Of a stretch of 64,000 nucleotides of DNA, positions 22,506 to 24,600 are shown piece after piece. Source of the stretch: Escherichia coli (GTDB lineage: Bacteria; Pseudomonadota; Gammaproteobacteria; Enterobacterales; Enterobacteriaceae); NCBI RefSeq assembly GCF_003334315.1, contig NZ_QOWR01000001.1, one strand, 5' to 3'. A program made the translations under genes and the position numbers. A model generated the notes under the pieces. That model made no database searches, was not told where the DNA came from, and saw only the letters and a list, made by a program, of their open reading frames with translations. Position 1 is the stretch's first letter, and every line of letters begins with the position of its first letter.

Positions 22506-23543
22506 TTACTTAGCGAGAGTTACTGTGGAGGGAGAGGCTTGCTCAAATCCGCGTTCAAGGATTTCCAGATTGGTAAGAACTTCAGATTCCTTGACGTAAT
22601 TTGGCGCACCGTGGGTGATGGTTTGATACAACGCATCATAAACGCGCCCGTAATCGCCCATCTCCGGCTTCATCTCTTCTCTGACCGTCACGCCCTCGTC
22701 ATTGACATACTCCAGCACACCGACCGAATCATCCGCTGCGAATCCCGGTTCGCCCGGCATAATATTAGCCTTCAGGCTGGTTTCCTGCTGGTCGATACCG
22801 TATTTAATAAACGAACCTTTCTTACCGTGAACGATAAATTTCGGATAATCGATTTTCACCAGATGGCTGGTTTTGACGATGGCTTTCAGGTCGCCATAAA
22901 ACAGTTGCGCTTCAAAGGTGTCGTCAGGATTGGCTTTATTACGCAGGCTGCGGATGTCATAAGCGACGTGATCCGGGCGACCGAACAGAGAAATAATCTG
23001 GTCCATCGTATGCACACCAAGGCCATAAAACGCGCCATCCTGCGGCAGCCCAGGTTTGGTTTCTGCCACCGGGCGGTAATAGTCAAAATGGCTTTCCACT
23101 TCAACAATCTCTCCCAACTTGCCACTTTCAATCGCTTTTTTCGCTGTCAGGAAGCAGGAGTCAAAGCGACGATTCTGATACGGCGTGACGGTCAGCCCTT
23201 TGCTTTTCGCCAACGCAAACAGCTCTTTCGCCTGCGCAAGTGTCGGAGTGAACGGTTTTTCGACCAGCACATTTTTCCCGGCTTCCAGCGCGCGTTTCGC
23301 GTACTCGAAATGGCTGTCCGCGTGGGTGCAGACAACAACCAGCTTAACATCGGGATCGTTTAGTACTTCGTCGAGATCGCTGGTGAAATGGATATGGGAA
23401 TAAATGGGAGCCTGTTCTTCCGGCTTCGCATGGCGACGAAAAATATGCGCGACATGCCAGCTATCCTTGCGGTTAAGTACATACGGCAGATGGTAACGGG
23501 TGGTGCTTTTGCCGAAGCCAATAAAGGCGCAGTTGATGACCAT
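22506..23543 (-). CDS. yhhX: Gfo/Idh/MocA-family NAD(P)-dependent oxidoreductase YhhX
   Basis: 345-aa ORF MVINCAFIGFGKSTTRYHLPYVL..., N-terminal Rossmann motif. Confidence 0.9.
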   Translation of the reverse strand: MVINCAFIGFGKSTTRYHLPYVLNRKDSWHVAHIFRRHAKPEEQAPIYSHIHFTSDLDEVLNDPDVKLVVVCTHADSHFEYAKRALEAGKNVLVEKPFTPTLAQAKELFALAKSKGLTVTPYQNRRFDSCFLTAKKAIESGKLGEIVEVESHFDYYRPVAETKPGLPQDGAFYGLGVHTMDQIISLFGRPDHVAYDIRSLRNKANPDDTFEAQLFYGDLKAIVKTSHLVKIDYPKFIVHGKKGSFIKYGIDQQETSLKANIMPGEPGFAADDSVGVLEYVNDEGVTVREEMKPEMGDYGRVYDALYQTITHGAPNYVKESEVLTNLEILERGFEQASPSTVTLAK

Positions 23544-23659
23544 GATTTCGTCCTTTTTAAGGTGGTTATTTACACCTTAGCGCAAAGCGGACGTGGTTCC
23601 TACTGGAGTGCGCATAACGAACACAAGCACTCCCGTGGATAAATTGAGAACGAAAGATC

Positions 23660-23754
23660 AAAAAAAAAGCCAGCACCCGGCTGGCTAAGTAATACTGGAA
23701 GCAATGTGAGCAATGTCGTGCTTTCAGGTTCTCCGCGAGGGTCTTCCTGATCGC
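23660..23754 (-). ncRNA. ryhB: RyhB, Fur-repressed iron-sparing small RNA
   Basis: Reverse complement of 23660-23754 reads GCGATCAGGAAGACCCTCGCGGAGAACCTGAAAGCACGACATTGCTCACATTGCTTCCAGTATTACTTAGCCAGCCGGGTGCTGGC plus a T-run (hairpin GCCAGC/GCTGGC + U9 terminator). Confidence 0.92.
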
Positions 23755-23755
23755 G

Positions 23756-23790
23756 AGACAATAATAATCATTCTCATTCGCACTTGTCCA
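23756..23790 (-). promoter_or_regulatory. Fur box / ryhB promoter
   Basis: aataataatcattctcattcgc immediately upstream of the RyhB 5' end resembles the GATAATGATAATCATTATC Fur consensus. Confidence 0.6.
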
Positions 23791-23875
23791 ACACTTTTTG
23801 CAAAAAAATGCATTTGACTCGCATTTGAAAGTCAATGATGTTGAAAGGGACATTTACCCCAAAGAGGACAAAGGA

Positions 23876-24364
23876 ATGAGTGAGATAGTAATACGCCACG
23901 CAGAAACACGGGATTACGAGGCCATCAGGCAGATTCACGCCCAGCCGGAGGTGTATTGCAACACACTACAGGTGCCTCATCCTTCCGATCATATGTGGCA
24001 GGAGCGACTCGCCGATCGTCCCGGCATCAAGCAACTCTTCGCCTGTATTGATGGAGACGTCGTGGGCCATCTCACCATTGACGTGCAACAGCGCCCACGC
24101 CGCAGTCATGTTGCCGATTTTGGTATCTGTGTCGACTCTCGTTGGAAGAACCGCGGCGTCGCCAGCGCCCTGATGCGAGAGATGATTGAAATGTGCGACA
24201 ACTGGTTGCGGGTAGATCGCATTGAACTAACCGTGTTTGTCGATAACGCCCCGGCAATTAAGGTCTATAAAAAATACGGCTTTGAAATTGAAGGGACTGG
24301 TAAGAAGTACGCATTGCGTAATGGTGAATATGTCGATGCATATTATATGGCGCGGGTGAAGTAA
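23876..24364 (+). CDS. yhhY: GNAT-family N-acetyltransferase YhhY
   Basis: Track ORF 23798..24364 trimmed to MSEIVIRHAETRDYEAIRQIHAQPEV (ATG 23876); 162 aa. Confidence 0.88.
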   Translation: MSEIVIRHAETRDYEAIRQIHAQPEVYCNTLQVPHPSDHMWQERLADRPGIKQLFACIDGDVVGHLTIDVQQRPRRSHVADFGICVDSRWKNRGVASALMREMIEMCDNWLRVDRIELTVFVDNAPAIKVYKKYGFEIEGTGKKYALRNGEYVDAYYMARVK

Positions 24365-24600
24365 GATAGTGCCCTTTTTCTGAGATGGAAAAAGGGTGTC
24401 ATTCAAAATCGACATACCTTCCTTTAAGGTATTTATTTGCCCAATACATATATTGAGATTTAACTCATAATTACTTCCTAAAGTGTAATATTTTATTTTT
24501 TAATATATACGCCTACAATTTCCTGGAGTAAATAAATAACAATTAACAAGCATAATATTGCCATTGATAAAATAGCATGCCATAAAAGGACTTTTCAGGG

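Follow-up and report, generated by a model that had tools for sequence, protein, structure and literature searches.

A ryhB locus identical to that of K-12 between yhhX and yhhY of an Escherichia coli genome, near a variable cassette

Introduction

What is encoded on the minus strand at positions 23660-23790 of this stretch of E. coli DNA: a small RNA, a protein, both, or a piece of the AT-rich islet that begins nearby? The question arises because the same letters can be read in more than one way. The initial annotation recognized the small RNA RyhB at this site, with a terminator and a promoter, and a list of open reading frames (ORFs) reports a 95-codon frame across it.

RyhB is among the best-studied bacterial small RNAs, and its dependence on Hfq is established knowledge. 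In 2002, Massé and Gottesman reportedly observed a transcript of about 90 nt from K-12 ryhB under iron limitation, and its action is said to have been Hfq-dependent. The discovery value of a copy identical to that of K-12 is small, and the use of the present analysis lies in annotation.

In this study, we analyzed a 64-kb stretch of E. coli DNA (referred to below as the window, with positions counted from its first letter) by covariance-model searches, promoter and terminator scans, alignment of relatives and comparison with complete genomes. We asked what the locus is, how it would be regulated and act, and whether a peptide, the neighboring islet or the 95-codon ORF offers a better account of it.

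Results

Identity of the locus

A covariance-model search had been proposed as a check on the reading of RyhB from the minus strand. When the 64 kb were scanned with Rfam 15, the RyhB model RF00057 matched 23661-23725 of the minus strand with 83.1 bits (E 3.6e-14), against a gathering score of 55 bits, and the match spans model positions 1-67 of 67. RyhB was the sole RNA family found at gathering level in the window, and a local rescan gave the same result. The gene and its two neighbors are placed as follows.

23660..23754, minus strand: ryhB gene, from mapping of MG1655 b4451 and Rfam; +1 at 23754, 3' end in the T-run 23660-23667
22506..23543, minus strand: yhhX (oxidoreductase), 116 bp downstream of the ryhB terminator and on the same strand
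23876..24364, plus strand: yhhY (GNAT N-acetyltransferase), NCBIfam NF007527 equivalog at 370.8 bits and MG1655 annotation

The window is 99.4% identical to MG1655 when the K-12 IS1E, absent from the window strain, is left aside. The ncRNA ryhB (b4451, 95 nt), annotated in MG1655 between yhhX and yhhY, maps to 23660-23754 of the minus strand with identical sequence, and the entire yhhX-yhhY intergenic region equals that of MG1655 with no differences. From 23790 down to 23660, the minus strand reads TGGACA, 18 nt, TATTAT, 6 nt and then GCGATCAGGAAGACCCTCGCGGAGAACCTGAAAGCACGACATTGCTCACATTGCTTCCAGTATTACTTAGCCAGCCGGGTGCTGGCTTTTTTTTT. The RNA is 95 nt long in the MG1655 annotation, and a length of about 90 nt is usually quoted. 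This copy of ryhB is thus one already known, unchanged from K-12, and since both the gene and the intergenic region are identical, published results on K-12 ryhB apply to the window sequence. The surrounding segment 23300-24700 was matched in 5425 of 5426 complete E. coli genomes. The reading of RyhB was borne out by the RF00057 match, by K-12 identity, and by the synteny and sodB seed complementarity described below.

Promoter and Fur box

The initial annotation had also read a Fur-box-like promoter on the minus strand, and both of its parts are present. A promoter scan found a sigma-70 promoter, TGGACA-18-TATTAT, at 23790-23761 of the minus strand with 10/12 matches; it is the only promoter-like site in 23300-24700. 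Fur sites were sought in the whole 64 kb with the 19-nt consensus GATAATGATAATCATTATC, allowing at most 3 mismatches.

23785..23790, minus strand: -35 hexamer TGGACA (promoter scan); TnGACA or TTTACA is kept there in the alignment
23761..23766, minus strand: -10 hexamer TATTAT (promoter scan), within the invariant block of the 31-species alignment
23757..23775, unstranded: Fur box with 16/19 matches to the consensus, overlapping the -10 and ending 3 bp upstream of +1

The -10 sits seven nucleotides upstream of the annotated 5' end of ryhB. The Fur-box match is unique in the window, where 0.01 would be expected by chance, and a 24-nt block of Fur box and -10 (23759-23782) is invariant in the alignment of 31 Enterobacteriaceae orthologues. 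Because the box overlaps the -10 and ends just short of the start, its geometry is that of a repressor site. The promoter region in the window is identical to that of K-12, for which a Fur site cluster of 25.2 bits was predicted at -15 of ryhB and an oligonucleotide with a predicted ryhB-promoter site was gel-shifted by Fur in vitro (Chen et al. 2007, PMC2189734). Together, these data support the Fur box as the likely iron-responsive operator of ryhB, with the binding itself taken from the K-12 literature on the identical sequence (PMC2189734).

In the region of the divergent ryhB and yhhY promoters, an A/T palindrome, TTTTTGCAAAAA, directly precedes the ryhB -35 at 23795-23806 of the minus strand and is largely kept across the alignment of 31 Enterobacteriaceae. 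It could act as an UP element or as a regulator site, and may represent an unrecognized regulator site common to the divergent ryhB and yhhY promoters.

The RNA and its terminator

The following elements were located within the transcribed part.

23735..23754, minus strand: 5' stem-loop, nt 1-20 (MFE single-sequence fold), the most variable part of RyhB between species in the alignment
23694..23721, minus strand: invariant 28-nt core GCACGACAUUGCUCACAUUGCUUCCAGU, the target-pairing region in stem-loop 2
23668..23686, minus strand: terminator stem-loop (terminator scan) AGCCAGCCGGGTGCTGGCT, with 7 pairs (5 G-C) and a loop of 5
23660..23667, minus strand: terminator U-tail, read from the sequence; with the AU-rich stretch 23687-23696, the expected Hfq-binding module

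The terminator noticed earlier on the minus strand was recovered by the terminator scan as a Rho-independent one, with the 7-bp hairpin followed by the T-run at 23686-23660. Among 55 unique hairpins collected across genera, the middle pair of its stem is A-U in 46, C-G in 8 and G-C in 1, with no mismatches; the stem undergoes compensatory pair changes across genera. An Hfq-binding module at the U-tail and the AU-rich stretch is expected from established knowledge of RyhB.

Folding gave a different picture for close relatives. RNAalifold, applied to 26 Enterobacteriaceae RyhB sequences, found zero covariation, with every predicted pair invariant or nearly so, so that the result counts neither for nor against the structure. 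At the 5' end, RNAalifold placed a long-range helix unlike that of the single-sequence fold and, with no covariation either, the 5' hairpin of nt 1-20 is left without comparative support. The single-sequence fold itself is no more stable than those of shuffled sequences (z = -0.67). Since the helices are invariant in close relatives, the structural support comes from the Rfam model and from the terminator covariation in distant genera.

Within E. coli and in close relatives, the terminator T-run is polymorphic in length; the window has 9 T (23660-23668). A weak second terminator-like hairpin lies at 23622-23637 of the minus strand, between the ryhB terminator and the start of yhhX; it has 6 pairs and a poor T-tail, and sites of this kind are no more numerous than chance predicts.

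Conserved core and gene order

Exact copies of the 28-nt core occur in at least 120 genomic stretches of other species, in Enterobacterales, Vibrionaceae and Aeromonas. It is conserved at every position, would-be third codon positions included. The gene order is conserved as well: yhhY, transcribed divergently from ryhB, stays on one side and yhhX/yhhW downstream on the other across Enterobacterales, from Escherichia to Yersinia, Serratia and Pantoea. A position between yhhX and yhhY is the enterobacterial context of RyhB, in agreement with an earlier report (PMC2189734).

Several departures from this arrangement were observed. A second RyhB is present on another contig in many genomes of Yersinia, Photorhabdus, Serratia, Pectobacterium and Pantoea. 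Tandem RyhB cores occur about 306 nt apart in L028 (Salinivibrio sharmensis, at 11696 and 12002) and in L086. In L115, a locus from another species, the core lies at 4090 and the YhhY match at 9717-10202, about 5.6 kb apart versus the usual distance of about 150 bp; this is an insertion between the normally divergent ryhB and yhhY.

Membership of the locus in the PrrF family (RF00444) was also considered and rejected: a permissive local scan gave 21.3 bits versus a gathering score of 90 (E = 0.74), which is chance level.

Target pairing and a proposed peptide

Part of the core faces a known target.

23709..23717, minus strand: sodB-pairing stretch, RyhB nt 38-46, GACAUUGCU; 9 nt that pair with sodB mRNA -4..+5

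The perfect reverse complement of this stretch, AGCAATGTC, spans the sodB ATG in MG1655; in the mRNA, the start-codon stretch AGCAAUGUC (-4..+5) is the perfect complement of RyhB nt 38-46. We assessed the pairing by a seed-restricted duplex in place of full-length duplexfold, a computation that ignores intramolecular structure and in which control TIRs scored better than sodB. The duplex of the seed with the sodB TIR reached -18.0 kcal/mol; the 45 control TIRs averaged -10.85, and not one equalled it. The complementarity seen in the window matches the published 9-nt RyhB-sodB duplex, whose formation was coupled to RNase E cleavage (PMC1807950).

The same segment has been proposed to have a second use.

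23685..23714, minus strand: RyhP ORF with an ATT start and 9 codons (IAHIASSIT, then stop; PMC5331693), in a frame different from that of the 95-codon ORF

In this proposal, made for EHEC, ryhB has a dual function and gives both the sRNA and a nonapeptide, RyhP (MAHIASSIT), from the ATT start. Neuhaus et al. (2017, PMC5331693) found ribosome footprints on ryhB and, at low iron, an effect of plasmid-expressed RyhP on competitive growth relative to stop-codon controls; the window contains this ORF without change. However, initiation would use a non-canonical codon behind a weak Shine-Dalgarno sequence, and the authors themselves qualify the claim with "supposedly" (PMC5331693). The first seven RyhP codons lie inside the invariant seed of the RNA, so their conservation says nothing about coding. 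Beyond the seed, the stop position is not conserved: 1-nt indels ahead of the terminator give products of 7 to more than 50 codons in different species. The ORF also overlaps both the seed and the stretch for Hfq binding, neither of which is free while the sRNA acts. Translation of RyhP is therefore an unconfirmed rival to which cross-species comparison lends no support, and we regard a dual function of the locus as improbable. The reading of ryhB as an sRNA gene is retained below.

The neighboring cassette

From roughly 24200 to 26800, G+C is 0.29-0.35, down from about 0.50, and the initial annotation had set RyhB about 600 bp from the boundary of this islet. The features involved are the following.

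24363..26703, plus strand: AT-rich variable cassette, G+C 0.29-0.35, bounded by comparison with strain 042 (which has yhhY-yrhB-ggt only); outside the ryhB unit
24601-25779, plus strand: yhhZ (Hcp-HNH), with an N-terminal Hcp/TssD domain (TIGR03344)
25776-26270, plus strand: yrhA, intact, matching family NF038335

YhhZ has been classed as an Hcp-HNH toxin (PMC5714182), and yrhA is split in MG1655 by the IS1E that the window strain lacks. The interval between yhhY and ggt has at least three alleles in E. coli. The yhhY-yhhZ-yrhA-yrhB-ggt allele is that of the window, with the yhhZ junction covered in 3815 of 5425 genomes; for the yhhY-yrhB-ggt allele, 1185 genomes have the flanks this close together; a third carries other cargo, as in O55:H7 with a frameshifted DUF4225 gene and a hypothetical gene, where homology resumes only at 27006. 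In its arrangement, the cassette resembles an orphan toxin/immunity module of a T6SS, set in a slot whose contents can be replaced.

Between the window and strain 042 (L124), the segment from yrhB (26704-27004) through ggt is 94.5% identical, and the yhhX-yhhY side 98.7%. This elevated divergence beside the variable cassette suggests that recombination may have occurred there.

Homology to E. coli strains without yhhZ ends at 24362-24364, i.e., at the yhhY stop codon, which is 608-610 bp from the RyhB 5' end (23754). The distance of about 600 bp was thus confirmed by measurement. The further statement that RyhB sits at the edge of the islet is imprecise, since the complete yhhY (23876-24364) lies between them.

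Proximity could nevertheless mean that ryhB is mechanistically tied to the islet, for instance as an integration target in the manner of tRNA, tmRNA and some sRNA genes. A separation of about 610 bp is the observation in favor of such a link, and it is offset by the junction itself, which falls at the yhhY stop codon with the whole yhhY gene separating it from ryhB. The yhhX-ryhB-yhhY segment matches E. coli genomes as closely when they lack the cassette as when they have it, and homology breaks only at that stop codon. Moreover, the yhhY-ryhB linkage far predates the cassette, being found across Enterobacterales loci none of which has a YhhZ homologue. Searches revealed no tRNA in the 64-kb window, no integrase in or beside the cassette (by its ORFs and family searches) and no mobility genes, and as flanking repeats only low-identity AT-rich matches. 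With no tRNA, integrase or flanking repeat, ryhB is a fixed neighbor and not the integration site. We rejected it as an att site of an island on these grounds (a junction 610 bp off at the yhhY stop, and no integrase, tRNA or convincing repeats), and consider any mechanistic tie highly improbable. As a landmark for the insertion site, the role it had been given, ryhB serves only as a map reference; the junction is the yhhY stop codon, with no mechanistic tie to ryhB.

The 95-codon ORF

The last alternative is a protein-coding gene overlapping ryhB.

23566..23853, minus strand: 95-codon ORF across ryhB, from the ORF list; a chance open frame

In the window, MG1655 and strain 042, the frame begins with an ATG and stays open. 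Yet ORFs as long or longer arise by chance antisense to real genes within the same 4 kb, for example one of 301 aa opposite yhhX and one of 97 aa opposite yhhW. Among 122 homologous copies in other species, the length that stays open around the core is highly variable, and most copies have a broken frame or lack the start codon. The Enterobacteriaceae alignment has indels of one to four nt inside the ORF, including non-multiples of three; E. albertii has no start codon for it; and the terminator T-run of E. coli O55:H7 differs in length, which shifts the frame over the C-terminal third and leaves 28 unrelated residues at that end. Database evidence agrees: NCBIfam gave 0 families, the best Pfam i-Evalue was 1.5, and the exact 95-aa sequence is absent from a collection of about 15 billion proteins. 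The annotations of MG1655, O55:H7 CB9615 and strain 042 have no CDS here, and the features beneath the match in the 25 listed genomes include none either. Finally, the ORF would start at the ATG at 23853, which is beyond the -35 and 99 nt upstream of where ryhB transcription begins, so the ryhB transcript cannot encode it. There is next to no chance that this is a real gene; the frame is open by chance and plays no part in coding, and the earlier suspicion of an artefact proved right in view of the unconserved frame, the lack of a family match and the lack of annotation.

Downstream of the T-run, the ORF frame is shifted in O55:H7 (L002), E. albertii (L010) and L085.

Discussion

It is virtually certain that the locus is the canonical ryhB of E. 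coli, encoding the Fur-repressed iron-starvation sRNA, with its promoter, terminator and seed pairing, and no result of the analysis spoke against this reading. The evidence from the window covers the RNA family, identity to K-12, the anatomy of promoter, Fur box and terminator, conservation, and sodB complementarity. Fur binding, iron-regulated expression, the sodB duplex and RNase E cleavage would carry over from the literature on the identical K-12 sequence.

The action of the locus may be proposed on this basis. When iron is sufficient, Fe2+-Fur on the Fur box over the -10 would block the sigma-70 promoter. When iron is scarce, Fur would depart, and an RNA of about 90-95 nt would be made from 23754 to the terminator at 23660-23686. 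This RNA would consist of three parts: a variable 5' hairpin, a central stem-loop with the invariant single-stranded seed, and the Rho-independent terminator. By analogy with what is known of RyhB, Hfq would bind the terminator U-tail and the AU-rich stretch upstream of the terminator. With Hfq, the seed would pair with the TIRs of mRNAs whose protein products use iron and are non-essential, such as sodB and sdhCDAB, and this pairing would block ribosome entry and lead to RNase E decay, sparing iron.

For annotation, these findings have three uses. The window can be recognized as the gntR-yhhW-yhhX-ryhB-yhhY-ggt region of E. coli, a false 95-aa gene call can be removed, and the left boundary of the variable yhhZ-yrhA cassette can be placed at the yhhY stop codon and not at ryhB.

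How does the locus compare with known systems? PrrF1 and PrrF2 of Pseudomonas are functional analogues, i.e., Fur-repressed sRNAs that spare iron via repression of sodB and sdh. By the covariance model (RF00444), they are not homologous to the RyhB of the window. RyhB paralogues and orthologues, including the second copies in Yersinia, Serratia, Photorhabdus and Pectobacterium and the RyhB of Vibrio, share the 28-nt core exactly, and where flanks were examined these other gammaproteobacterial copies also share the Fur-box promoter and the terminator. They differ from the window in the length and sequence of their 5' regions and in their terminator stems, which are GCCCGC/GCGGGC in some loci and GGGGCCAG in Aeromonas, and the second copies sit outside the yhhX/yhhY context. 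The RNA of Vibrio is about 225 nt long, compared with about 90 nt in E. coli (PMC1807950). Against E. coli K-12 ryhB (b4451, RF00057), no difference was found: the copy in the window is alike in gene, intergenic region, promoter, Fur box and terminator, and its neighboring genes and sodB-pairing nucleotides are the same.
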